DNA of 30,277 nucleotides from Verrucomicrobiota bacterium (GCA_019236035.1 JAFAJU010000092.1:1-30277), one strand, 5' to 3'. Shown: positions 1,133 to 13,790, counted from the first letter of the stretch. The notes: a model not told the origin generated them from the sequence alone. A program made the numbers and translations.

Positions 1133-1942
1133 TTAGATCGCTGCAGCCAGAGGCTCGCGACCCTCCGGTGTCCGGTCCAACTCTACAACTTGAAACCTGA
1201 CGCCGCGCTTTGTGAACGCCTCGGAAAACTCCGCCGGCATTCCAAAATCTGTGATCGTCAAGTGTATCTCTGAGAGGCTGGCAAAAGTCGCCAGGCAAGC
1301 ATGACCGAATTTTGTCGAGTCCGCGAGTACATAACTCTCATCAGCGGAACGCATCATCGCCTGCTTCACCTCCGCGTCGAGCGGATTCGGCGTACTATGC
1401 CCATGCGTGAGGGTAATTCCGGAACTACCGAGAAAAGCCCGGTCCGCGTGGAAAGTCCCCAGCGTCTTGATCGCCGTGGGTCCAATTAAGGCTAGACTAT
1501 GGTTCCGGACCTGACCGCCAACCAACAAGATCTCGTACCCGGCCCGCGATAACTCTATCGCGGCGGGCACCGAACTCGTGATGACATAGAGAGAACGGAA
1601 CTGGCTCGGAAGCACCTGGGCCAATGCTAAAGTTGTGCTGCCGGCATCCATGATGATCGTATCACCATCGTGAATATAGGCCAGGGCCGCTCGCGCTATC
1701 AGGTCCTTGGAAGAACCATGCATCTGCAGCTTCTGGAAAAACGAGGCGTTGAATCTGCTCCGATGCGAGAAAATTGCACCCCCATACGTTCGCTGGAGCA
1801 TACCCTGCTCTTCCAGCTCGGCCAGATCTTTGCGCACCGTGACCTGGCTTACTTCGAATAGTCCGGCCAGCTCCTCGACTTTGACGTTCCCTTCGGTCTC
1901 GAGAAGTTGCAAAATTCTTCGTCGCCGTGCTTCCGCTGTCAC
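1133..1942 (-). CDS. DeoR/GlpR family transcriptional regulator
   Basis: RRRRILQLL...VKVEELAGLFEVSQVTVRKDLAELEEQG..RTYGGA HTH; DAGSTT, GGQVR, DSTKFG sensor motifs. Start set at GTG 1942 because the track's extension to 2011 lies in a REP doublet. Confidence 0.92.
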   Translation of the reverse strand: MTAEARRRRILQLLETEGNVKVEELAGLFEVSQVTVRKDLAELEEQGMLQRTYGGAIFSHRSRFNASFFQKLQMHGSSKDLIARAALAYIHDGDTIIMDAGSTTLALAQVLPSQFRSLYVITSSVPAAIELSRAGYEILLVGGQVRNHSLALIGPTAIKTLGTFHADRAFLGSSGITLTHGHSTPNPLDAEVKQAMMRSADESYVLADSTKFGHACLATFASLSEIHLTITDFGMPAEFSEAFTKRGVRFQVVELDRTPEGREPLAAAI

Positions 1943-1954
1943 AAAATATTTGCC

Positions 1955-2043
1955 GGTAGGGCTGCCCTCCTGCGCGTCCGGGGGAGCACGTCCACAACAT
2001 CTCGAACGCACATATCCCGGACGCGCTGGAGCGCGGTCCTACC
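1955..2043. repeat. REP doublet (GTAG class) overlapping the iolB stop codon
   Basis: ggtagggctgccctcctgcgcgtccggg ... cccggacgcgctggagcgcggtcctacc imperfect inverted pair; core gcgcgtccggg/cccggacgcgc is perfect. Confidence 0.75.
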
Positions 2044-2860
2044 GAGTACCTTTCACCGGAATCTCAATTGGTTTGCCGTCCCAGTTCTTTGTTACCCAGT
2101 CGTAGTGTGGATCGTTAATCGCATTGATCTTTCTAAGATCGCCCGCGAGGAAATTCAGGTAGTAGGCGTTTGTACCCGGTGCTTTCACCACCGGATGATA
2201 GCCTTCATGCACTAATACCAAATCGCCGTCGTGCAGCGGGATCGCCACATCCAAATCGGTGTCTCTGGTGTAAATCCGTTGAATGGCGAATCCGTCCGGG
2301 GGTGTTAACCGGTAATAGTAAGTCTCTTCGTGGTACGAAGAGTTATCCCGCGTATCATGCCGGTGCGGCGGAAAACTGGACCAGTTGCCACTTGGAGTAT
2401 GAATCTCGTAAACGGTCAGGCGTTCGCTCAACTCGTCAGAATCTAACAACGCGCTTACGCCGCGTTTCACATTTGCGCCTCCGCGAATTCCAGACGGAAT
2501 CTCTCCCCGCCGGATTACGCGAGCAGGCAGTTTTCCCGCTGCAGGTGCTCCGCCGATGGCCACTTCGAAGCCGTCACTGCTCGTCAGCACGTAGGCCGTA
2601 CGGGGCGGAAGATAAACGACATCGGCCAGTTCGCGAAAAAGATCTTCGCGACCTAATTGGAGAGTTTCCTGATTAAAGGCGATTGCTCCATGACCTACCA
2701 GTGGGACAACGACAACTTCCTCTTCACCGGTATTTCCTTCCAACTGCTGGCCCGCGGCGAGCGCCGCAACTTTGAAAGAGAGATACTTCCAATGCGCGGT
2801 TTCCGGACGCACATCGTGCAGGTAAAGATGGCCATGGTTAGGTCTATAATGCCGCTTCAT
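2039..2860 (-). CDS. iolB: 5-deoxy-glucuronate isomerase
   Basis: GNWSSFPPHRHD, YHEETYYY, DGDLVLVHEGYHPVV and AYYLNFLAG are the KduI/IolB signature motifs. Confidence 0.93.
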   Translation of the reverse strand: MKRHYRPNHGHLYLHDVRPETAHWKYLSFKVAALAAGQQLEGNTGEEEVVVVPLVGHGAIAFNQETLQLGREDLFRELADVVYLPPRTAYVLTSSDGFEVAIGGAPAAGKLPARVIRRGEIPSGIRGGANVKRGVSALLDSDELSERLTVYEIHTPSGNWSSFPPHRHDTRDNSSYHEETYYYRLTPPDGFAIQRIYTRDTDLDVAIPLHDGDLVLVHEGYHPVVKAPGTNAYYLNFLAGDLRKINAINDPHYDWVTKNWDGKPIEIPVKGTR

Positions 2861-3873
2861 GCCTGTATCTCCGAAACCTTGACCGGACGATTTTCCCGCC
2901 AGCTCTTAGTGGTTGCTAACGCCAGGCGCAGCGTTTCCAGAGCATCCTCCGGCCCTGGAGAGGGTTTTCTTCCCGCTAACAACGCCCCAAAGAAAGCCTC
3001 CAGTTCTAAGCGATAAGCCAGTTCAAAACGGTCTGGGAAGTTTTCGAAATGATCGAAGCTTGAATTGAAGTCCTTAGCGAAAAGGAGCGGCGTTTTCTGT
3101 GGAGCTTCAACTACGACCTTGCCGATCGCACCGGCTACTTCGGTACGAATGTCATATCCCCAATTGGAATGACGAGAGGTCTCCGCAACTCCCAACGCGC
3201 CGTTAACAAACTTGAGAAACGTCACCGCCGTGTCAGCATCGCTTGCCTTGGCGAATCTCTCATCTACCAAAACCGTGCCCCACGCCTGGACCTCTTCAAC
3301 TTCGCCTACCAGAAAACGGGCGAGGTCCAGATCGTGCACCGCCATGTCGAGAAAAAGGCCGCCGCTTCCCATTAAGAATTCGAGGCTCGGGGGATAAGTA
3401 TCGCGGCTGAGAGCTCGAAACAATTCGATTCGACCGAGGTCATCTGCCTCAATTTTTTGCTTGGCGCGCGCATAACCGGGATCGAATCGACGCATGAATC
3501 CCAATTGCACCGAGATTCCTCGATCCTGAATTAACTTCACCACGCGGGTGGTCTCGGCGAGGTCGAGCGCGATCGGCTTTTCGCTGAAGACAGCTTTACC
3601 CGCGTTCGCCGCCAACTCGAGCAATCGAGCATGCGTATCGGTCGGAGTCACTATCACGACCGCGTCAACGCCTGGATGAGTGATCGCCTGCTCGACGTCC
3701 GTTAAAGCCTGTTCCGCGCCGACGAGCGCTCTTCCGCGTTCGGCCGCTTCGCGCCTGGGATCAGCGACGACCAAGACTTTTACTCCCGATATCCCCAGCA
3801 GATTACGTAGATGGGTTTCACCCATTCGGCCAACACCGAGGAATGCGACGCCTATCGAGGATCCGATACTCAT
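2857..3873 (-). CDS. iolG: Gfo/Idh/MocA oxidoreductase, inositol 2-dehydrogenase-like
   Basis: GVGRMG NAD-binding motif, EKPIA, GFMRRFDPGY, DMAVHDLD; lies between iolD and iolB. The exact inositol isomer specificity is unknown. Confidence 0.8.
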   Translation of the reverse strand: MSIGSSIGVAFLGVGRMGETHLRNLLGISGVKVLVVADPRREAAERGRALVGAEQALTDVEQAITHPGVDAVVIVTPTDTHARLLELAANAGKAVFSEKPIALDLAETTRVVKLIQDRGISVQLGFMRRFDPGYARAKQKIEADDLGRIELFRALSRDTYPPSLEFLMGSGGLFLDMAVHDLDLARFLVGEVEEVQAWGTVLVDERFAKASDADTAVTFLKFVNGALGVAETSRHSNWGYDIRTEVAGAIGKVVVEAPQKTPLLFAKDFNSSFDHFENFPDRFELAYRLELEAFFGALLAGRKPSPGPEDALETLRLALATTKSWRENRPVKVSEIQA

Positions 3874-4748
3874 AAAACCGCCTCTTCAACACCAAGTTCC
3901 GCAGCGACTATGTTGAGCTCTTCCTTCGTGGCGACTTTTGAATGCCATTCGTGCTTACCTTCGGCGAAGTGAACGCCTTTGCCTTTTACCGTGCGGGCTA
4001 TGATTAAAGTTGGCTGATCTGAACTTCCGGAGGCTTTAGCCGCCTCTAGCGCTGGGACAATCTGTGAAAAGTCGTGCCCATCGATTTCCTGAACGCGCCA
4101 ACCGAGTCTTTCGAAGATCCCTTTGAGGTCCACGCTATCCCACGGGTCACGCCGGTCGCCGCGATGCTTCTGACCTGGCCTAAGCAGCCAACCAAACTGC
4201 TGCAGCCCGTTCCAGTCAAGAATCGTGGTCAGGTTTCCGAGTTTGTACCTGGGAGCCACATGCAACGCCTCCCAAATCATTCCCTCCTGGAGTTCGCCAT
4301 CACCAATCATCACAAAGGTGTGAAAATGCTGTCCGCGCAACCGAGCACCCAGAGCAATTCCAAGCCCAACCGACAATCCCTGGCCCAGTGAACCCGTCGA
4401 AGTCTCTAAGCCGGGCAGTTTTGTGACATCCGGATGCCCCTGCAATCGCGAGCGCCCCTTGTCAAACGTCTTTAGCTCTTCAACCGGAAGATATCCTCGC
4501 AGTGCCATTACAGTGTATTGCCCAATCGCAGAATGCCCTTTTGAAAGAATAAACCTGTCTCGCTCCGGCCAGTGCGGTTCTTCCGGTCTGACCTTCATTA
4601 CCCGAAAATAAAGCGACACCATGAGATCCATGGCCGAAAACGGTCCGCCCACGTGTCCCGCACCGCTTCCGGCCACCGTGCTGATCACCAGCCAGCGCCC
4701 TCTCTGAGCTAGCTCCGCTAAGGGCTTGAAGTCTGCTTCACCGCTCAT
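3870..4748 (-). CDS. Transketolase N-terminal (TPP-binding) subunit, stand-alone
   Basis: GHVGG, DRFILSKGH, LQGHP, TGSLGQG, GDGELQEG...WE (TPP motif), DGHD, TVKGKG; 292 aa, so no pyrimidine-binding or C-terminal domain. Confidence 0.92.
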   Translation of the reverse strand: MSGEADFKPLAELAQRGRWLVISTVAGSGAGHVGGPFSAMDLMVSLYFRVMKVRPEEPHWPERDRFILSKGHSAIGQYTVMALRGYLPVEELKTFDKGRSRLQGHPDVTKLPGLETSTGSLGQGLSVGLGIALGARLRGQHFHTFVMIGDGELQEGMIWEALHVAPRYKLGNLTTILDWNGLQQFGWLLRPGQKHRGDRRDPWDSVDLKGIFERLGWRVQEIDGHDFSQIVPALEAAKASGSSDQPTLIIARTVKGKGVHFAEGKHEWHSKVATKEELNIVAAELGVEEAVL

Positions 4749-4784
4749 AACCTTGTCCGGCTCAGCACGGTGCGGTCGCCAGCT

Positions 4785-6674
4785 TTACGCGAAAACAGGG
4801 CGTTGTTTCTCGGTCGCTTTTTCGTAATTTTCCCTGGTTTTACGGGTTTTCTCTTCCGCGCTGACTTCCGCTACGGGCACATCCCACCAAGTACCCAACC
4901 CGGGCATCCGTTTTTCCGGGTCGACCGGAACCACAATGACAGTGACTCGGTCAGCGTTACGCGCATCGTTAATGGCCTTCTTAAGGTCTGCTGCGTTCCG
5001 TGCGAAGATCGCATTGGCGCCCATCGACTCGGCATGTTTCTGAAAGTCGACCGGGATATACTCGCCCGTCAGCTGCTTAGTGGCACGATCACGATACCGC
5101 AATTCGTTTCCGAAATCCGATACGCCGACAGCGCGCTGTAACCCCAGAATGCATTGGTAGCCGTGATTGTCGACCAGTACGATCGTCAGCTTGAGGCCTT
5201 CGCCCACAGCGGTGACTATTTCGGAGTTCATCATCAGGTAAGAGCCGTCTCCCACCATGACGACCACTTCACGGCCAGGCTCTGCCAGCTTGACTCCTAG
5301 CCCTCCTGCAATCTCGTAGCCCATACATGAGTAGCCGTACTCCATGTGATACGCTTTTGGGTCTTCCGGTCGCCAGAGACGCAACAACTCGCCAGGCATT
5401 CCCCCGGCTGCGCAAACCACAGTCGCCTTGCCCCCGACTGTCTCATTCACTAGCCCGATGACGGCCAACTCTCCCAGTGGCTCGGAACCTCCCTGCGGCG
5501 TTCGCAACTCAGTGACTTTCGCATCCCAGTCCTCTTTTAGATGCTGTATCTCGCTCCGGTACGCCGCCTGAGTCCCGGAATACCCTGCTCCCTTGAGCTC
5601 CCCTCGCAGTGTACTTAGCGCACGTCTCGCGTCCGCGATGAGCGGCCGCGACCCAAGCTTGTTAGCATCCATTGGCGCGACGTTTATGCCTACGAATCGG
5701 ACGGTCGGGTTCTGAAACGCTGACTTTGAAGCAGTCGTAAAATCACTCAACCTTGTTCCCAGAGTGATAATCAGGTCGGCTTCACGGGCCAGTTTGTTGG
5801 CAGATGTGGCGCCGTTCGATCCTATCGGTCCGGCGTTCATTGGATGATTCCAATTCAGGACTCCTTTACCGGCCTGGGTTTCAGTCACTGGAATACCGAA
5901 CTCTTCCGCAAACTGCCTCAGTTCTTCGGACGCTTCAGAATAAATCGTGCCGCCACCTGAAATGATCAAGGGACGCTGGGCGCCTTTCAGCAGATTTACG
6001 ACTTCCCGCACTAGCTCAGGTTCCGGCACCGGGCGGCGCACGTGCCAAACTCTTTTCTCAAAGAACTCAATAGGCCAATTATGCGCTTCAGCTTGAACGT
6101 CCTCTGGAAGAGTTATAGTCACTGCCCCGGTCTCTGCGGGATCGGTCAGCACGCGAAAGGCCTCAGGCAGACTTGCCACCAATTGCTCCGGGCGAGAAAT
6201 CCGATCGAAAAAGCGCGACACCGGTCGGAACGCGTCGCTGGCACTGACATCGCGCTCGAGCGGATGCTCAAGCTGCTGCAACACTGGATCCGGTACTCGA
6301 TTCGCGAAATAATCGCTTGGCAAAAGAAGCACCGGAATACGGTTTACGGTGGCCCCCGCAGCGCCTGTAACCATGTTGGTTGCGCCCGGCCCGATAGAAG
6401 TCGTGCAGGCGAAAGTAGCCAGCCGATTTCGGTGCTTTGCGAATGCTGCCGCGGTGTGAACCATGGCCTGCTCATTCTGCGGTCGATAAAATCTGAGACC
6501 TTCCGCTTGACTGAACTCGACAATACCCTGACCTAGCCCTGCGACGTTGCCATGCCCAAAAATTGCCCAAATTCCTTCGATAAATCGGTTCTCGCGCCCG
6601 TCTCGTTCGACGAATTGGCGCGCCATGAATCGGACTAAGGCTTGTCCGGTAGTTAGACGAATGAATCTATTCAT
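4785..6674 (-). CDS. iolD: 3D-(3,5/4)-trihydroxycyclohexane-1,2-dione acylhydrolase (TPP-dependent)
   Basis: LTTGQALVRFM, IFGHGNVAGLGQ, QNEQAM, LQQLE, YHMEYGYSCMGYEIAG, VGDGSYLM; strong SD AGGAGG 6 nt upstream (6681-6686). Confidence 0.95.
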   Translation of the reverse strand: MNRFIRLTTGQALVRFMARQFVERDGRENRFIEGIWAIFGHGNVAGLGQGIVEFSQAEGLRFYRPQNEQAMVHTAAAFAKHRNRLATFACTTSIGPGATNMVTGAAGATVNRIPVLLLPSDYFANRVPDPVLQQLEHPLERDVSASDAFRPVSRFFDRISRPEQLVASLPEAFRVLTDPAETGAVTITLPEDVQAEAHNWPIEFFEKRVWHVRRPVPEPELVREVVNLLKGAQRPLIISGGGTIYSEASEELRQFAEEFGIPVTETQAGKGVLNWNHPMNAGPIGSNGATSANKLAREADLIITLGTRLSDFTTASKSAFQNPTVRFVGINVAPMDANKLGSRPLIADARRALSTLRGELKGAGYSGTQAAYRSEIQHLKEDWDAKVTELRTPQGGSEPLGELAVIGLVNETVGGKATVVCAAGGMPGELLRLWRPEDPKAYHMEYGYSCMGYEIAGGLGVKLAEPGREVVVMVGDGSYLMMNSEIVTAVGEGLKLTIVLVDNHGYQCILGLQRAVGVSDFGNELRYRDRATKQLTGEYIPVDFQKHAESMGANAIFARNAADLKKAINDARNADRVTVIVVPVDPEKRMPGLGTWWDVPVAEVSAEEKTRKTRENYEKATEKQRPVFA

Positions 6675-6760: not shown

Positions 6761-6809
6761 GATTTCGATTTGTTTCGAACTGTTAACAGAATGAAACCCG
6801 GCTAGTCAA
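6761..6809 (-). promoter_or_regulatory. Candidate iolD promoter with adjacent operator-like direct repeat
   Basis: Minus strand TTGACT (6804-6809), N17-18, T/TAACAG; directly downstream TCGAAA-N4-TCGAAA (TTTCGA at + 6763 and 6773, 10-bp period). Confidence 0.4.
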
Positions 6810-7011
6810 GTGGAACTCCAGCGATTTGCGCAAGCTTCCTTTCTCCGATATTAGAATCTCCTCGGAGACCCTCTCGGAAGAAATCTGCTTCAGCAAGAAA
6901 AAACTGAGGTTTCGAATCGAAATACTAAGGGCAGGCTTGCACAGAAGGTCCACTTGGATCGGTCCCTGTTCTCGGCGTCCTCTGTGGTAAAATGTCCCCT
7001 CCTTGCCCTTC

Positions 7012-7959
7012 CTAATCGCGATGTTCCGCTAGACCGCGAGTAAAAATGTGGTTGTGAATCGGCCTTAAGATTTCGAGCACTTCCGCCAGTAAGGCTTCAT
7101 CAATTGGTTCGTTTACAAAGGCGATGTCTTCCCGCATTTCCTCCGGGCGTCCTGTGCCAACCAAGGTCGTAGCAATGTCGGAATTTGTGCAACAATATTG
7201 GACCGCAAGTTTGACGATGTTCACGCCTTTTGCCGCACAGTGAGCCACAGCGTTCTGGCATCCCTGTTTGATAGCTTCGCCTGCAGGGTGCCAGACCGGC
7301 GGACCTTCCGGGGTGAGCAAACCCATACCGACCGGAGCGGCATTGATGATGCCGACGCCCTTTGATTTTAGGTAAGGAATCAAACCCGCCAGGGTGTTGT
7401 CATTTAATGTATAGTGGCAAAACGACAAAATGGTCTCGATAGTGCCGGGTGCAACACGGTCCAGAATGCTCGGAAAAATCTTTAAGGGAAGCCCGGTAAT
7501 GCCAATATGGCGAACAAGGCCCTGGCGCTTGAGAAGCTGAAGCGCCGGTATCGTTTCATCCACGATCTGGTCGTGATTTCCAAATTCGATGTCGTGGCAC
7601 TGAATGAGATCCACATAGTCGACACCAAGTCGCTTCAGGCTGTGCTCGACACTGCGCTCCGTGCTAGCACGCGAATAGTCGTAATCATGTCTCGCCTCGC
7701 TGTAGCTGCCAATTTTTGTCGCGAGATAGTATCGTTCACGCGGCACTCCCCGCAGCGCGCGGCCGAGATTCAATTCCGCTAACGTGCCGCCGTACGCGGG
7801 AGAGACATCTATGAAATTTATCCCGCCTTCAAACGCGGCATGGACAGTCTCGATGCACTGATCAAGCTTCGCGCCACGAGATACCTCCCCAAGCGAACGC
7901 GCTCCGAAACTGAGACATGAAACCTGGAGGCCGGTTGGACCGAGTTTGTTGTACTTCAT
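7012..7959 (-). CDS. Aldo/keto reductase (L-galactose / D-threo-aldose dehydrogenase-like)
   Basis: MKYNKLGPTGLQVSCLSFG, GINFIDVSPAYG (catalytic D, Y), TKIG, SLKRLGVDYVDLIQCHD; start at ATG 7959 fits the family N-terminus. Confidence 0.88.
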   Translation of the reverse strand: MKYNKLGPTGLQVSCLSFGARSLGEVSRGAKLDQCIETVHAAFEGGINFIDVSPAYGGTLAELNLGRALRGVPRERYYLATKIGSYSEARHDYDYSRASTERSVEHSLKRLGVDYVDLIQCHDIEFGNHDQIVDETIPALQLLKRQGLVRHIGITGLPLKIFPSILDRVAPGTIETILSFCHYTLNDNTLAGLIPYLKSKGVGIINAAPVGMGLLTPEGPPVWHPAGEAIKQGCQNAVAHCAAKGVNIVKLAVQYCCTNSDIATTLVGTGRPEEMREDIAFVNEPIDEALLAEVLEILRPIHNHIFTRGLAEHRD

Positions 7960-8109
7960 TTGGTCGGCCTCAGGAATTCGCAACACGAGCCAATAAGCCG
8001 TTGACAGCGGGATCGGAGATACTGCGATTCAGGCCGCGGGTAACCGCATACATTGAATTCTTCCCGTTCATTGAAATTATTGTGATTATCTGGCAAGTCC
8101 TGTTTTAGC

Positions 8110-9423
8110 TTGCCATGTGCTGCGGATGAAAATAGATGTGGCGAACTCTGTATGGTTGGGAGCCCTTTGCTTATCGCAGAAAAAGCACGGACCCGATTAC
8201 AGTCAGTGATTGCTTCTTTGCGGGAAGGCCGACCCACGAACTTGAATGTTGTTCGGTTGCCCAACCCGGCAGACGTCGTCGTCACTCCATGTGAAGTCAA
8301 CGAATTACATGGCACGGGCACTTTGCTTTTGAGGATATTCAAAGATTCACCCTCAGTAATTTCGTTGCGAACAAGTAATTTCTATGACCTCCCGCAAAAT
8401 TTCGGAGTCGCAAATTTCTGTTTGCCGCTGGCCCAAGCTTCCCGCTCCGAGGTCCTGTCCTGGGTCAAATGGTGGCTGAACACAACTTCTGTCCGCCGCG
8501 TCGTCTGCCTGCCCTATCTCCCTGCAGATCCTGTTGTTGGCATTACGGTGAAAGAACTCTTCAACGCTCGATTGTGCACCTATATCATGGACGATAAGAA
8601 CGTCTGTACCAATGGAATTCCCGATTCCTTAATGGAAGAGTTGCTTGCTAAGTCGGATCTCCGCCTGGTCATTTCGCCGGAAATGCGCGAAGCCTACGAA
8701 AAGAAATATCGTCTCAAGTTCTATCTTCTCCCCCCGCTCGTCTCGGATGAGTTGCTTAGGAAAACTCCCCTTCGGCAACTTAATGGAGTGAAACCTCGAC
8801 GATGTGTTCTGATCGGAAACATTTGGGGTCAGCGGTGGCTTGACTTGCTTCGGAATACGATTCGCAACAGCGGCTATCAAATTGATTGGTATTGCAATCA
8901 AAAAAAACCGAGAGCCCTTTGCTTTGACCGCAATGAATTAGAACAAGACGGCATCCGGCTGCTGGATCCGATCCCTGAGGTTGATCTTCCTGCAATTCTT
9001 GCGCAATACGCTTGTGCCATTGTCCCGTCCGATACCCTCGACGGAAAAAGTCCGCCGAATGTGCAGGCGATAGCGGAGTTGAGCCTGCCCAGTAGGATTC
9101 CGTTCGTGATCGCGACATCGCATCTCCCCATAGTCGTCCTTGGCCATCCTGCAACCTCCGCGGCCCGCTTTGTTGATCGATTTAAGTTTGGCGCGGTCGT
9201 CCCTTATGATGCTGATGCTGTCCGAACCGCTTTGGAAAGGCTTTCTGAACCTGAGACACAGGCGGCTATACGGTGCCGCGCAGCGGCATTAAGCGGGAGC
9301 TTTTCAGCGCGAGGTTCTTCCGACTGGATTTGGCGTTCCCTCGAAGCAGGCAAAGCGTGCGACCTTACTTTCGAAAAATTGATGCCTCCCTCGGAAGGTG
9401 AAAGTCTTCTAGAGGGCAATTGA
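8110..9423 (+). CDS. Putative GT-B fold glycosyltransferase (divergent GT4-like); start uncertain (TTG 8110 or ATG 8152)
   Basis: YIMDD...SDLRLVISPEMREAYEKKY and SLPSRIPFVIATSHLPIVVLG resemble the GT4 'ISxxM' and 'PSKLxEYxAxGxPI' elements; context next to methyl- and sulfotransferase genes. Confidence 0.55.
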   Translation: MPCAADENRCGELCMVGSPLLIAEKARTRLQSVIASLREGRPTNLNVVRLPNPADVVVTPCEVNELHGTGTLLLRIFKDSPSVISLRTSNFYDLPQNFGVANFCLPLAQASRSEVLSWVKWWLNTTSVRRVVCLPYLPADPVVGITVKELFNARLCTYIMDDKNVCTNGIPDSLMEELLAKSDLRLVISPEMREAYEKKYRLKFYLLPPLVSDELLRKTPLRQLNGVKPRRCVLIGNIWGQRWLDLLRNTIRNSGYQIDWYCNQKKPRALCFDRNELEQDGIRLLDPIPEVDLPAILAQYACAIVPSDTLDGKSPPNVQAIAELSLPSRIPFVIATSHLPIVVLGHPATSAARFVDRFKFGAVVPYDADAVRTALERLSEPETQAAIRCRAAALSGSFSARGSSDWIWRSLEAGKACDLTFEKLMPPSEGESLLEGN

Positions 9424-9427
9424 CCTG

Positions 9428-10459
9428 ATGAACGAATCCGTGGATGCCCAATCTTTGTATGAGTTGGAGAGCATACTCCACTCGCTGGTTGCGAATGATA
9501 CCGCTATCCTGGACGCGCTTGCGCAAATGCTCACCGCTCTACAACAGATGCAGGCCAGGAGCGAACAAAGCCTGGGCAATCTTTGTGGCGAGGTCCGCGA
9601 ACTGCGAGCGGAAGTACGCAACCTGAGCCTCGAGTTAACCGAAGCCAGAGAGAAGACCGCCAGCAGGCGCCAGCCTTTCATTGTGACAGAGGATGCGGTT
9701 TCAGCACAGAATCCAGAGCTGGGTTTGCTTGAATATCTGTATTCCTTTTTGACTAATACAAATGCCATCGATGTGGGCGCCAATGTGGGCAGAGTCTCAG
9801 AGCGCCTGCTAAAATCCGGTTACATCGTCTACGCTTTCGAGCCGTTTGGCCCTTCGTTTCAGATGCTGTGTAAAAGGCTGAAAGCCAGCCAGAGTTTTCA
9901 TCCATTCAACGTCGCGCTCGGGCCGGCGGACGCAACGATGAATCTGCATATCGCCTCGGATCTATCCGGAGTCAGCAAATGGGATTCCAGCCTTTTTCAC
10001 AGTTTGATTGAGCGACCGATGCTGCAGGATCTCCAGTTTACGCAGTCCGTTCCTGTTCAAGTGCGTAGTCTCGAAAGCTTACGCCGAAATGGTGAGATTC
10101 CGGAGTCCGCCGGTCTGCTGAAGATCGATACAGAAGGTTTCGATCTTGAAGTCATCCGCGGCATGGGAAACGGCGATTTTACTGTCGTGATGTCTGAGTT
10201 TTGGGATCCTGCGCATCCCTTTGGCCGTCTAGCCACCGGGAGACTCGAAGATCTTGTTACCGAAATGAAGAGCAGAGGCTACCACTGGCATATTGTGATT
10301 TATCACCAGGATGAGACCTCGGCGATCTCCTACTATTGTAATCGCGCACAAACGGTTCCCAACTCGTGGGGGAATGCATTCTTCTTCCGAGACCACGCGA
10401 TTTTCGCCAAAGCACTTCGTTGGTGCGAGGAAGTTCTTGTCGCAACCCTATATCACTGA
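9428..10459 (+). CDS. FkbM family SAM-dependent methyltransferase with N-terminal coiled-coil extension
   Basis: AIDVGANVG, YAFEP, NVALG, LLKIDTEGFDLEVIRG; first ~75 aa are heptad-rich (LRAEVRNLSLELTEARE). Confidence 0.88.
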   Translation: MNESVDAQSLYELESILHSLVANDTAILDALAQMLTALQQMQARSEQSLGNLCGEVRELRAEVRNLSLELTEAREKTASRRQPFIVTEDAVSAQNPELGLLEYLYSFLTNTNAIDVGANVGRVSERLLKSGYIVYAFEPFGPSFQMLCKRLKASQSFHPFNVALGPADATMNLHIASDLSGVSKWDSSLFHSLIERPMLQDLQFTQSVPVQVRSLESLRRNGEIPESAGLLKIDTEGFDLEVIRGMGNGDFTVVMSEFWDPAHPFGRLATGRLEDLVTEMKSRGYHWHIVIYHQDETSAISYYCNRAQTVPNSWGNAFFFRDHAIFAKALRWCEEVLVATLYH

Positions 10460-10461
10460 CG

Positions 10462-11196
10462 ATGCAGGGACAGGGTATAATACTTTGTTGCGGAATGATC
10501 CGTTCAGCGTCAACGCTGCAGTACCAAGTCGTTGCGGACCTTGTTAAACGAAGCCGCCTTGGCCAGAGTATTGGCTATGCAGATCGACAGAGCATCCCGG
10601 AAGTTATGCAGAAATTGGACCGGGTTGCCGGTTTCGCGGTAGTTAAAACACACGAAGTTCTTCCGGAATTGGACCCGTTCATAGAACAGGGGCTGGTTCG
10701 CCTCTTGTATTCTTTTCGTGATCTGCGGGCCGTCGCGCTCTCAGTAATGCGAAAGTGGGAAATCCCATTTGCGCATGTGATCGGCCGAAATGGATGGCTC
10801 GACACTGCGGTCGCTTCTTCTACCCGCTGGCTTTCAGTCCCTGGGGTTTGCGCAAGCCGCTATGAGGATATGGTCTTGGCGCTGCCTGGCGAAGTCACGA
10901 AATGGGCGTACGCTCTTGGTTTGAATATCAGGCGGGGGCAGGCCGAGGAGTTGGCCGCGCGATATTGCATCGAAGCGCAGCGGGATCGGATTCGAATGAT
11001 CCAGAACCCAGGTGAAGCCGGCGGACCCACTGAATACTTTGATCCCGAAAGCTTGCTTCACCCCAACCATATCATTGACGGTTCGTTGGAGGGATGGAAG
11101 ATAGGATTGGAGAAATGGCAGATTCGTCAAATTGAGGGTCGTTTTTCCAGGTGGCTGTTGGATCATGGCTATCAACTCACTAGCGCTGCTGGGTAG
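10462..11196 (+). CDS. PAPS-dependent sulfotransferase domain protein
   Basis: CGMIRSASTL (5'-PSB loop), KTH, YSFRDLRAVALS (3'-PB), RYEDM; ATG 10462 is 2 nt after the FkbM stop. Confidence 0.8.
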   Translation: MQGQGIILCCGMIRSASTLQYQVVADLVKRSRLGQSIGYADRQSIPEVMQKLDRVAGFAVVKTHEVLPELDPFIEQGLVRLLYSFRDLRAVALSVMRKWEIPFAHVIGRNGWLDTAVASSTRWLSVPGVCASRYEDMVLALPGEVTKWAYALGLNIRRGQAEELAARYCIEAQRDRIRMIQNPGEAGGPTEYFDPESLLHPNHIIDGSLEGWKIGLEKWQIRQIEGRFSRWLLDHGYQLTSAAG

Positions 11197-11280
11197 GGAG
11201 GCGCTTCCGCTGGTCTGCGCATGCGCGTGCCCGCTCTGGTGGGCGCGCTGTCCCGGACGCGCACGAGCGCGTCCCTAACA
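11193..11280. repeat. Degenerate REP-like element beginning in the sulfotransferase stop (G-TAG)
   Basis: gtagggaggcgcttcc ... cccggacgcgcacgagcgcgtccctaac; shares cccggacgcgc with the 1955-2043 element. Confidence 0.6.
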
Positions 11281-11292
11281 GACCACCTCTGT

Positions 11293-12054
11293 ATGCGAGA
11301 CAGTGCACTAGTCGAAGTCCAACATCTGACGAAGCTATTTGGAAACTTCAAGGCGGTCGATGACGTATCGTTTTTCGTTCGGGCCAGCGAGATCGTTGGC
11401 CTTCTTGGCCCGAGTGGTGCGGGGAAGACAACGACGATTCACATGATGCTGGGCTTGATTTCACCAACTGCCGGCAGCGTGCGGATTTTCGGCAAGCGCC
11501 TTGAGGAGAACCGTGAACAGATTTTGCAAAAGGTTAGCTTCACAGCTCCGTACGTGCTCTTCCCTACCCGGCTTACCGTCTTCGAAAATTTGCTGGTCTT
11601 TGCCCGGCTTTACAGAGTCAATCATCCGTCATCGAAGATCCGGGAACTCCTGCGGATGTTCGCCATAGAGCACCTGAAGAACAAACCTGTCTCGCGTTTA
11701 TCCTCGGGGGAAAATACCCGGGTAGGGCTTTGCAAAGCGTTTATGAGTGATCCGAAATTGCTGCTGATGGACGAACCAACTGCCTACCTCGATCCGCAAC
11801 TAGCCCTTCACGTGAAAGAAATTCTCCTGAATATGCAGTACAGGTCTGGCACGACCATTCTCTACACGTCGCACAACATGGCGGAGGTAGAGGAGATGTG
11901 CAGCCGAATCATATTTCTCAACCGAGGCCGGGTGCTTGCCACCGGTACTCCGATTGAAGTAACTCAGACCATCCTTAAAGAAAATCGCACTGAACCGGCA
12001 CTGAGGGAGGTTTTCCTGCACTTAGCGAGGAGGCAGCCAAATGAAGTCGCATAG
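11293..12054 (+). CDS. ABC transporter ATP-binding subunit (ABC-2 / NodI-DrrA-like exporter)
   Basis: Walker A GPSGAGKTT, variant signature LSSGE, Walker B LLLMDEP, H-loop YTSH. Start moved to ATG 11293 because the upstream extension is REP DNA. Confidence 0.92.
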   Translation: MRDSALVEVQHLTKLFGNFKAVDDVSFFVRASEIVGLLGPSGAGKTTTIHMMLGLISPTAGSVRIFGKRLEENREQILQKVSFTAPYVLFPTRLTVFENLLVFARLYRVNHPSSKIRELLRMFAIEHLKNKPVSRLSSGENTRVGLCKAFMSDPKLLLMDEPTAYLDPQLALHVKEILLNMQYRSGTTILYTSHNMAEVEEMCSRIIFLNRGRVLATGTPIEVTQTILKENRTEPALREVFLHLARRQPNEVA

Positions 12055-12829
12055 GATCGAGGCGATCATCCTGCGGCACACCTGCGAAGCCCGGCACAAT
12101 TTGAATCGGATCGCCGAGATGGTGTACTGGCCAGTGCAGAACATAGTCGTTTGGGGGTTTTTCACTGTTTATCTGGCCCGGGATAACCATCTGCGGCCGG
12201 GCGCGGTCAGCTTCCTGCTGGGTGCAGCCATTCTCTGGGGAATGTTCTATGCCTTCCAGCGCGACCTGGCCACGGGGTTTCTGGAAGAGCTCTGGTCGCG
12301 AAACATCATTAACTTATTCTCCACACCTCTGAGCATTTCGGAGTACTTAACTGGTCTGATTATCGTAAATCTTCTAAAGGCGCTGCTTGGCATGATAGCA
12401 GCGGCCCTGACTGCCTGGGTCTGTTATGCCTACAACATCTTTCCGAAATCACTTGCCTTGATCCCGTTTATGCTGAATCTGGCTCTGTTCGCCCTGGCTA
12501 TTGGCGTGATTATTATCGGCCTGATTGTCAGGTATACCACCAGAATCCAGACTCTCGCGTGGAGCTTTGCCGGGTTACTGATGCCCTTCTCTTGTGTATT
12601 CTATCCTTTGAACTCGCTACCAAAACTTTTGCGTCCTTTCGCCTGGGTCCTGCCAACTACTCATGCCTTTGAAGGGATGAGGCAGGCGATCCAGGGGGGA
12701 GGATTTTCGACTCTGCACTTCGCCTGGGCGATTACATTAAATGCGCTCTACTTTCTGCTCGCGATCCCGATCTTTCGGATGATGTTTGAGTCTGCACGCT
12801 CGCGCGGGCTCTTGGTAAAACTGGAATAG
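12041..12829 (+). CDS. ABC-2 type transporter permease
   Basis: About six hydrophobic segments; FSCVFYPLNSLP...LPTTHAFEGMR is the ABC-2 membrane motif; overlaps the ATPase gene by 14 nt. Confidence 0.9.
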   Translation: MKSHRIEAIILRHTCEARHNLNRIAEMVYWPVQNIVVWGFFTVYLARDNHLRPGAVSFLLGAAILWGMFYAFQRDLATGFLEELWSRNIINLFSTPLSISEYLTGLIIVNLLKALLGMIAAALTAWVCYAYNIFPKSLALIPFMLNLALFALAIGVIIIGLIVRYTTRIQTLAWSFAGLLMPFSCVFYPLNSLPKLLRPFAWVLPTTHAFEGMRQAIQGGGFSTLHFAWAITLNALYFLLAIPIFRMMFESARSRGLLVKLE

Positions 12830-12842
12830 AGGCATTGAGTTT

Positions 12843-13640
12843 ATGTTTCAGCAGGTTAGCTCTGCTATGTGGGGGTTCACCACCTATGTGTTCCCCGCGT
12901 CTCTGGCAGGTACCTTGCTCGAGGTCTTGATTCCGGGAGAAAAGCAATCCGTCCAGTCGCGTCTCCGGGCAATTCCTATCTGGATAGTTTATATTTTCAT
13001 TGGGGTTAGTTCCGGAGCGCTTCTTAGGTGTCTTCTCGATTTACTGCATATCCGGCCACTGCTCTCAGTGGATCTGAAGAACGCAACTAATTCAAACGAT
13101 GTTGTTGTTATCATCGCGGCCTACGCGGTGTTTCCCGCCGTCGGTTTCTTCATCTACGATTTCTTCTATTACTGGTTTCACCGGCTCCAACATACATTCC
13201 GCGTGCTTTGGCGCGTGCATGCTGTCCATCATTCCATTGAGGAGTTGAACGCCTTTAACGACTATCATCATTGGCTGGAAAACGCGTTACGGGTGCCCTT
13301 GATTCTGCTTCCGATGTCATTGCTTATTTCCGTGCGTACCTTCGACGTCATTGTTTACACGATGATCCTCCAGTTCATGGGGCAGATGACGCATGCCAAT
13401 TCAAAAATCAGTTATGGCCTCTTCCGATACGTTTTTTCTGAGCCCAGGTATCACCGGATTCATCATTCGGCGGAGAAACGCCACTGGGGCAAGAACTTCG
13501 CCTTCATGTTTCCTTTCTGGGACGTGGTTTTCGGTACGGCCTATTTCCCAAAACCCGACGAATATCCACGGACAGGGCTTCCGCAGCAGAGAGAGCCACG
13601 CTCAATCGTAGAGTATATCACGGCTCCTTTCCGGCGCTAA
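12843..13640 (+). CDS. Sterol desaturase / fatty acid hydroxylase family membrane di-iron enzyme
   Basis: His boxes YWFHRLQH, HAVHH, THAN, HRIHH, followed by NFAFMFPFWDVVFGT. Confidence 0.9.
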   Translation: MFQQVSSAMWGFTTYVFPASLAGTLLEVLIPGEKQSVQSRLRAIPIWIVYIFIGVSSGALLRCLLDLLHIRPLLSVDLKNATNSNDVVVIIAAYAVFPAVGFFIYDFFYYWFHRLQHTFRVLWRVHAVHHSIEELNAFNDYHHWLENALRVPLILLPMSLLISVRTFDVIVYTMILQFMGQMTHANSKISYGLFRYVFSEPRYHRIHHSAEKRHWGKNFAFMFPFWDVVFGTAYFPKPDEYPRTGLPQQREPRSIVEYITAPFRR

Positions 13641-13641
13641 A

Positions 13642-13775
13642 GTAGCATAGGCTTCCAGCCTGTCGGGCGCGGCGCTGCCCCGCAAATACAGGCTGGGAGC
13701 CGTGTCCCGGAGGGACGGCTTGCAAGCCCTAAAAAATGCCCAAACTCCACATACAGGCTGGAAGCCTGTGTGCTC
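13642..13775. repeat. REP cluster (three copies of the GTAGCA family)
   Basis: gtagcataggcttccagcctgt (13642-13663), acaggctgggagccgtg (13688-), acaggctggaagcctgtg (13753-), between convergent genes. Confidence 0.8.
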
Positions 13776-13790
13776 GCCAGGCCGGCCTCG

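Follow-up and report, generated by a model that had tools for sequence, protein, structure and literature searches.

A reduced inositol operon with an orphan transketolase subunit in a Verrucomicrobial genome, and a proposed transketolase ending for inositol breakdown

The stretch of DNA analysed here, called the window throughout, is a complete contig of 30,277 nucleotides (nt) from a soil Verrucomicrobiota bacterium (GCA_019236035.1 JAFAJU010000092.1:1-30277). It belongs to a 3.27-Mb metagenome-assembled genome (MAG) of 615 contigs, with 75% completeness and 3.6% contamination; because the assembly is fragmented and incomplete to this degree, absences from the genome as a whole are weak evidence. 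On its minus strand the window carries an inositol-type operon, iolD-tktN-iolG'-iolB-deoR, in which a gene for the N-terminal half of a split transketolase (tktN) stands without a gene for the C-terminal half (tktC). The initial annotation, made from the sequence alone, had described these genes at positions 1133 to 6674, and open reading frames (ORFs) and family profiles bear it out. It had also reported that iolE, iolC and the transketolase C-subunit have no copy here, and a scan of the window's genes agrees: none of the three occurs in the 30 kb, nor does any further gene of the iol or transketolase families. The elements of the operon are as follows.

6763..6809, minus strand: candidate promoter/operator block (TTGACT, an imperfect 24-bp palindrome and TCGAAA repeats).
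4785..6674, minus strand: iolD, 629 amino acids (aa); 3D-(3,5/4)-trihydroxycyclohexane-1,2-dione acylhydrolase, a thiamine pyrophosphate (TPP)-dependent ring-cleaving hydrolase (TIGR04377, 903 bits, cut-off 715).
4749..4784, minus strand: iolD-tktN spacer of 36 nt, in which roughly 19 nt of the iolE 5' end remain as a stub, recognized by homology to the relative G020.
3870..4748, minus strand: tktN, 292 aa; orphan N-terminal PP-domain, thiamine diphosphate (ThDP)-binding subunit of a split transketolase.
3870..3873, minus strand: ATGA junction of tktN and iolG', the scar of tktC excision in the alignment to the closest relative, G017.
2857..3873, minus strand: iolG', 338 aa; Gfo/Idh/MocA-family paralog of inositol dehydrogenase (TIGR04380, 343.6 bits, cut-off 355).
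2039..2860, minus strand: iolB, 273 aa; 5-deoxy-glucuronate isomerase (TIGR04378, 265 bits, cut-off 205).
1133..2011, minus strand: deoR, 292 aa; IolR-like regulator of the DeoR family (HTH_DeoR and DeoRC).

Overlaps of 4 nt with the sequence ATGA join tktN to iolG' (3870-3873) and iolG' to iolB (2857-2860). The first of these is the clean coupling that the initial annotation had correctly noticed and had taken to argue against a deletion. Comparison with related genomes overturns that argument: the window operon is a reduced derivative of a family-wide cluster, here called type 1, and is probably dependent on a sister cluster instead of being a self-sufficient remodelled operon.

Reduction of the type-1 cluster

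A search with TktN of 43 genomes from the same family (Chthoniobacterales/Terrimicrobiaceae-like Verrucomicrobia) finds a close match in 32, this genome included. The source names attached to close homologues put the genome in the Verrucomicrobiota, among the Chthoniobacterales/Terrimicrobiaceae. Directly after tktN, all 28 of the 28 relatives' loci of sufficient length encode a tktC gene (Transket_pyr/Transketolase_C). The full type-1 order is iolD-iolE-tktN-tktC-iolG-iolG'-iolB-deoR-binding protein-permease-ATPase, ending in some genomes with an aldehyde dehydrogenase gene; deoR of the window has its equivalent position in these clusters. The relatives' iolE-like gene covers the whole of TIGR04379 at 213-235 bits, the G020 copy at 235 bits. 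There are two iolG genes, of which the proximal one scores 380-388 bits on TIGR04380 and the distal one, at 360 bits in G008, is the ortholog of the window's iolG'. The window protein is 87-89% identical to the distal iolG products of G017, G019 and G020, and 50% identical to the proximal one. The proximal gene is missing from the window operon and likewise from G017, which reads iolD-tktN-tktC-iolG'-deoR and whose proteins are 92% (IolD), 88% (TktN), 89% (IolG') and 89% (DeoR) identical to those of the window.

The DNA alignment to G017 stops at the ATGA of the tktN/tktC junction and resumes just past the iolG' start codon, at the ATGA of the tktC/iolG' junction. Both tktC junctions in G017 read ATGAAAG, so that an exact excision recreates a clean ATGA. 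The tktC gene was lost by exact excision between translational-coupling junctions, and the overlap once read as a sign of intact design is the signature of the deletion. A second loss lies just upstream. Homology to G020, where iolE starts by an ATGA overlap on the iolD stop codon, runs about 19 nt past that stop into iolE and restarts inside tktN. Since the iolD-tktN spacer holds this stub, iolE has been deleted too.

The tktC deletion is genuine and is carried by a natural lineage. A degenerate DNA pattern in which the end of tktN and the beginning of iolG' lie 75-105 nt apart had, among 81 loci, no matches but the copies of this genome itself, and in the metagenome collection it matched two contigs from different Joint Genome Institute (JGI) metagenomes. 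Both contigs are 96.5-96.9% identical to the window in nucleotide sequence and share its tktN-iolG' junction and gene order; one spans iolD, tktN and the start of iolG', and the other runs through iolD-tktN-iolG'-iolB-deoR into an inositol-type binding-protein gene. Among the clusters compared, the window is the only case of an excised tktC. The initial annotation had set its remodelled operon against a decayed copy of a cluster with both transketolase subunits plus iolC. The homologous clusters do have both subunits, and iolE as well, while none of them carries iolC.

Erosion of the type-1 cluster varies across the family, with iolE and iolB gone from G017, and iolB and deoR gone from the locus in G014. 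Another relative, G023, has three transketolase pairs in differing iol-like contexts (L076, L080 and L081). Two contigs binned as Steroidobacteraceae, in the Gammaproteobacteria (L109 and L111), carry a tktN-tktC-iolB set 74-76% identical to the Verrucomicrobial one, which reflects either mis-binning or a recent horizontal transfer.

The orphan subunit and its candidate partner

The TktN protein matches PF00456 (Transketolase_N) only, at 177 bits, and covers positions 12-284 of the 627-position model of full-length transketolase. Alignment to 6YAK and to human transketolase shows that the motifs GH, SKGH, GHPD, GDGE...N and EWH are kept; an insertion of about 11 residues follows the DWNG motif relative to 6YAK. 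The ratio of non-synonymous to synonymous substitution rates (dN/dS) for tktN against the tktC-bearing relatives G017, G019 and G020 is 0.04-0.06, like that of the neighbouring genes. Within the tktC-less lineage dN/dS is 0.18-0.26 for tktN, 0.11-0.15 for iolG', 0.09 for deoR, 0.07 for iolB and 0.01-0.04 for iolD, values that come from small counts (11-13 non-synonymous against 15-18 synonymous changes) in three sequences that do not give independent comparisons. A further measure uses 99 columns that are at least 97% conserved across 58 distinct TktN relatives from three phyla. The window protein deviates at one of these (A175T), the metagenome copies at one and at none, and controls at 0-4. 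Constraint on tktN is loosened beyond that on its neighbours, yet it is far from neutral. The remaining genes of the operon, tktN among them, are intact and under purifying selection.

In a transketolase the active site arises where the PP domain of one chain meets the Pyr domain of a second, so an N-terminal half is unable to work alone. The initial annotation had expected the partner subunit to be encoded elsewhere, and this gains support from contig C551, which carries an ABC-transporter ATPase, a permease and an intact pair, tktN2 and tktC2. TktN2 is 83% identical to the window's TktN (TktN1), and TktC2 is 78% identical to the type-1 TktC of G017. Because the N-half needs such a partner, TktN1 probably pairs in trans with TktC2. 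Contig C249 of the same MAG carries a partial iolD2 (the C-terminal half, 362 bits for half of the model, 42% identical to the window's iolD), iolB2 (327 bits, 38% identical to the window's iolB), an aldehyde dehydrogenase resembling succinate-semialdehyde dehydrogenase (SSADH) and the beginning of an IolE-like gene where the contig ends.

Pieces of the C551 and C249 kinds are joined in relatives (L073, L077 and L079) into one cluster, here called type 2. It encodes four Gfo/Idh/MocA oxidoreductases, a short-chain dehydrogenase/reductase (SDR) and an IolE-like TIM-barrel protein, then tktN2 and tktC2, then a single protein of about 1000 aa in which a flavin adenine dinucleotide (FAD)-linked oxidase is fused to 4Fe-4S domains, and finally iolD2, iolB2, an aldehyde dehydrogenase and iolE2. 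The two cluster types often occur together in one genome of the family. Their transketolase pairs are about 80% identical and their iolD and iolB products only about 40%, from which it would appear that the transketolase pair was copied between the clusters fairly recently; this implies, on the strength of these identities, a recent duplication or gene conversion of the pair between old paralogous clusters.

No orphan tktC is found in this genome. Each of its other Transket_pyr genes either encodes an E1-beta subunit or forms part of a full-length or paired transketolase, and the genome holds two further split pairs besides four transketolase genes of full length. Candidates for the missing partner were the stand-alone Transket_pyr genes of C504 and C581, which were rejected as E1-beta subunits lying beside E1-alpha genes. 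The number of transketolase paralogs (contigs C583, C500, C491 and C396) is unusually high for a MAG of 75% completeness.

The lower pathway and competing explanations

The canonical myo-inositol pathway proceeds through IolG, IolE, IolD, IolB, IolC, IolJ and IolA, as in the iolABCDEFGHIJ type of operon of Bacillus subtilis. The IolE model, with a cut-off of 290 bits, finds nothing better in this genome than a 33-bit match and, in the fragment at the end of C249, a 29-bit match. For iolC, the best match in this genome, at 75% completeness, reaches 162 bits against a cut-off of 300, and fits models of 2-keto-3-deoxygluconate (KDG) kinase better. Five relatives of 91-95% completeness have no iolC above the cut-off either, their best match being an unlinked gene at 189 bits. 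A methylmalonate-semialdehyde dehydrogenase is present, unlinked.

The initial annotation had suggested that a transketolase replaces IolC and IolJ. Comparative evidence strengthens this suggestion, which stays an inference supported by genomic context, because no iolC scores above the cut-off, because the transketolase is linked to iol genes in three phyla, and because its pocket is altered. The alteration is invariant in about 110 iol-linked TktC sequences from both cluster types and the three phyla. A canonical pocket reads His...Gly-Glu-Asp-Gly-Pro-(Thr/Ser)-(His)-Gln in the split enzyme of Carboxydothermus hydrogenoformans, in the human enzyme and in the full-length copies of this genome, whereas the iol-linked pocket reads Tyr...Gly-(Leu/Phe/Tyr)-Thr-Gly-Lys-Thr-His-Gln. 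Tyr stands in for the phosphate-binding His, (Leu/Phe/Tyr)-Thr for Glu-Asp and Lys for Pro, and both Arg residues and the Ser are kept. We take the swapped residues to correspond to E. coli His461, which binds the substrate phosphate, and Asp469, which reads a substrate hydroxyl. The retained Arg pair and Ser of the phosphate site could serve to bind a carboxylate. The signature A-Y-x-G-x-x-T-G-(L/F/Y)-T-G-K-T-H is present in TktC2 of C551.

Linkage of this transketolase to iolD, iolB, iolE and iolG is also found in Thermaceae and in Chloroflexota (Limnocylindrales), the groups that hold the nearest outside relatives of the iol-type TktC. Across 400 Verrucomicrobiota genomes from outside the family there is no close relative, the best match having 44% identity, and within this sample of the phylum the iol-type TktC looks confined to the family.

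In the mechanism that we propose, a specialised transketolase would take over the role of IolC and IolJ in both cluster types. In this genome TktN1 would pair in trans with TktC2, and the type-2 cluster would also supply the IolE-like enzyme, the transporter and the aldehyde dehydrogenase. The product of IolB, 5-dehydro-2-deoxy-D-gluconate, should offer a free hydroxymethyl ketone end and the D-threo configuration needed by transketolase donors; phosphorylation by IolC would block that end. The transketolase would take C6-C5 as a glycolaldehyde unit and leave the four-carbon semialdehyde 3-hydroxy-4-oxobutanoate, which the linked aldehyde dehydrogenase may oxidise to malate, predicted by stereochemical reasoning to be the D form. 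The D-malate could in turn be a substrate for the type-2 cluster's FAD-linked oxidase, which is of the 2-hydroxyacid type.

Taken jointly, the three parts of the preferred reading (a reduced type-1 operon, TktN working with TktC2 in trans, and a transketolase replacing IolC and IolJ) have a probability of roughly 0.55. A more specific form, held tentatively and at somewhat less than even odds, is that two paralogous inositol operons share TktC2, and that the hybrid TktN1-TktC2 cleaves 5-dehydro-2-deoxy-D-gluconate without ATP to a C2 unit and D-malate semialdehyde. A search of the full-text literature found no paper linking a transketolase to the iol pathway. For the non-canonical inositol route of Dysosmobacter, an aldolase of the fructose-bisphosphate aldolase (FBA) type has been proposed to act on a phosphorylated intermediate, not a transketolase (PMC13311982).

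Several observations count against the preferred reading. Both this genome and its relatives encode PfkB-family kinases that reach 160-190 bits with the iolC model. Stand-alone proteins with DUF2090, an aldolase-type domain, occur, unlinked, in G008 and G020, and were found neither in this genome nor in G023 or G035, no IolJ model having been among those searched. Class-II aldolases are present, one of them on C504 beside the E1 genes, and a kinase or aldolase could lie in the unassembled DNA of the MAG. The substrate, acceptor and product of the iol-linked transketolase are inferred. The window copy of the operon has neither a transporter nor an aldehyde dehydrogenase of its own. Given the completeness and contamination of the MAG, C551 and C249 may come from a different cell than the window. 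Finally, the three- to five-fold rise in dN/dS of tktN after the loss of tktC, larger than that of its neighbours, fits slow decay as well.

Decay is the core of one alternative, in which the orphan tktN is a functionless relic. The type-1 copy, being redundant with type 2, would be undergoing dismantling gene by gene, with iolE lost first, then the proximal iolG, tktC and the transporter, and tktN merely not yet degraded. Successive losses are indeed documented in the window operon, sister genomes have other partial losses (those of G017 and G014 described above), and the shift in tktN from 0.04-0.06 to 0.18-0.26 is the largest among the five genes. We consider this explanation unlikely, although far from negligible, in that the tktN ORF is intact in three independent sequences about 3.5% apart in nucleotide sequence, its dN/dS is far below 1 with 0 or 1 change at the 99 highly conserved columns, and the promoter/operator block is conserved. 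With dN/dS values of 0.01-0.09, iolD, iolB and deoR are very strongly constrained, and therefore the operon as a whole is not decaying.

A different possibility, compatible with the preferred reading and also rated as doubtful, is that the reduced operon serves another cyclitol, for example scyllo- or chiro-inositol or an inosamine. IolG' would oxidise it and the intermediates would feed the type-2 pathway, so that only the differing steps would be needed in the operon. It is the less canonical IolG' that is kept, below its cut-off at 343.6 bits, and the canonical iolG of the relatives (380-388 bits) that is absent. The type-1 binding protein of the relatives is closest to the model of the rhizopine (inosamine) substrate-binding protein (SBP), at 355 bits, below the cut-off of 420, and identity between the two cluster types is only about 40% for iolD and iolB. 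Yet the window copy is without a transporter, and its iolD and iolB duplicate steps of type 2 instead of complementing them.

The remaining two explanations are very improbable. Loss of tktC as an assembly or binning artefact might be suspected in a MAG of 615 contigs in which the left end of the operon, past deoR, and the region upstream of iolD differ from both metagenome contigs, but it is contradicted by the tktN-ATGA-iolG' junction in those two contigs, assembled independently from other metagenomes, and the 7-nt microhomology is too short for an assembler to join on. An operon built for its purpose from the outset, with neither tktC nor iolE at any time and with the ATGA coupling as its original design, would suit the clean overlaps and intact ORFs, but is contradicted by synteny and scar: the iolD-tktN spacer holds the iolE stub, and the nearest relatives (85-92% protein identity) carry tktC at exactly that place.

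Control region, flanks and comparison with known systems

Some 90 nt separate the promoter/operator block from the iolD start downstream of it, and the block is kept upstream of iolD in L082, G017, G019, G020 and G008. Its TTGACT box is overlapped by an imperfect 24-bp palindrome centred on TGTTAACA, with TCGAAA repeats. A second TTTCGATTCGAAA element lies about 140 nt farther upstream and is kept before iolD in several relatives. The block is probably the DeoR/IolR operator of the operon, and block and TTTCGATTCGAAA element together make a candidate IolR operator. A scan for consensus promoters and terminators gave no more sites than in shuffled sequence. One further gene adjoins this region.

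7012..7986, minus strand: aldo/keto reductase (AKR; PF00248), upstream of iolD, its link to the operon uncertain.

The AKR gene adjoins iolD in G017, with 80% identity, and is not at that position in L082. It belongs to a 6.9-kb segment (6925-13784) between the iolD promoter and rex/dnaX, which also includes a gene for a 437-aa protein of no assigned family, an FkbM methyltransferase, an ABC-2 exporter and a fatty-acid hydroxylase. L082, a metagenome contig 96.5% identical to the window, is without the segment, and there rex/dnaX abut the upstream region of iolD; G017 has at least the AKR. The segment looks like a strain-variable insertion or deletion. At the other end of the operon, metagenome contig L083 is homologous precisely as far as the deoR stop codon, from which L083 continues into an inositol-type binding-protein gene. 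The window continues instead (positions 1-1132) with an ORF of 94 aa and a response regulator (288-851) whose helix-turn-helix is of the excisionase type, and no transporter remnant is found in it beyond the deoR stop. The break at that stop is either a rearrangement breakpoint or an assembly join.

Inositol is a major carbon source derived from plants and soil, and its bacterial breakdown is textbook biochemistry. A kinase-free ending through a transketolase, if real, would alter the scoring of genomes for inositol use, for which surveys now demand iolC and iolJ. Transketolase enzymology would gain deoxy-keto sugar acids as a new class of natural substrate, as well as a pocket variant occurring in nature (His to Tyr, Asp to Thr) that is of interest for biocatalysis. 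The contribution of the window is a Verrucomicrobial family in which the cluster exists in two paralogous versions. If the hybrid TktN1-TktC2 operates as suggested, it would represent an undescribed lower branch of inositol breakdown together with a natural exchange of subunits between split ThDP enzymes. The locus also carries a caution for annotation, in that an exact deletion between coupling junctions can mimic design, and clean overlaps should not be read as intact architecture.

Of known systems, the canonical iol operon is the nearest in gene content. Like it, the window has iolD and iolB, both scoring above the equivalog cut-off, together with a dehydrogenase of the IolG family and a repressor of the DeoR type; in the relatives an IolE-like gene and an ABC transporter of the inositol type are shared as well. 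The cluster differs in having a split transketolase between iolD/iolE and iolG and in being without the IolC kinase and the IolJ aldolase; the window copy is also without iolE. The cluster matches the iol operon in its upper half and does not belong to it in its lower half.

For the transketolase itself, the best match of solved structure is the split-chain enzyme of C. hydrogenoformans (6YAJ/6YAK), to which TktN aligns with 229 bits and the TktC of a relative with 272 bits. They have the motifs for cofactor binding and catalysis in common with it. The pocket of that enzyme, His...Gly-Glu-Asp-Gly-Ala-Ser-His-Gln, differs from the Tyr...Gly-(L/F/Y)-Thr-Gly-Lys-Thr-His-Gln of the iol-linked enzymes, and the window, unlike it, has no C chain. 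SqwGH (sulfofructose transketolase) and AptA/AptB (apulose-4-phosphate transketolase) are split enzymes of catabolism that use unusual ketose donors. The likeness to these is one of logic only, a dedicated two-gene transketolase in a sugar operon whose removal of a C2 unit replaces a kinase and an aldolase, and the difference lies in the substrate, proposed here to be a deoxy-keto sugar acid derived from inositol.

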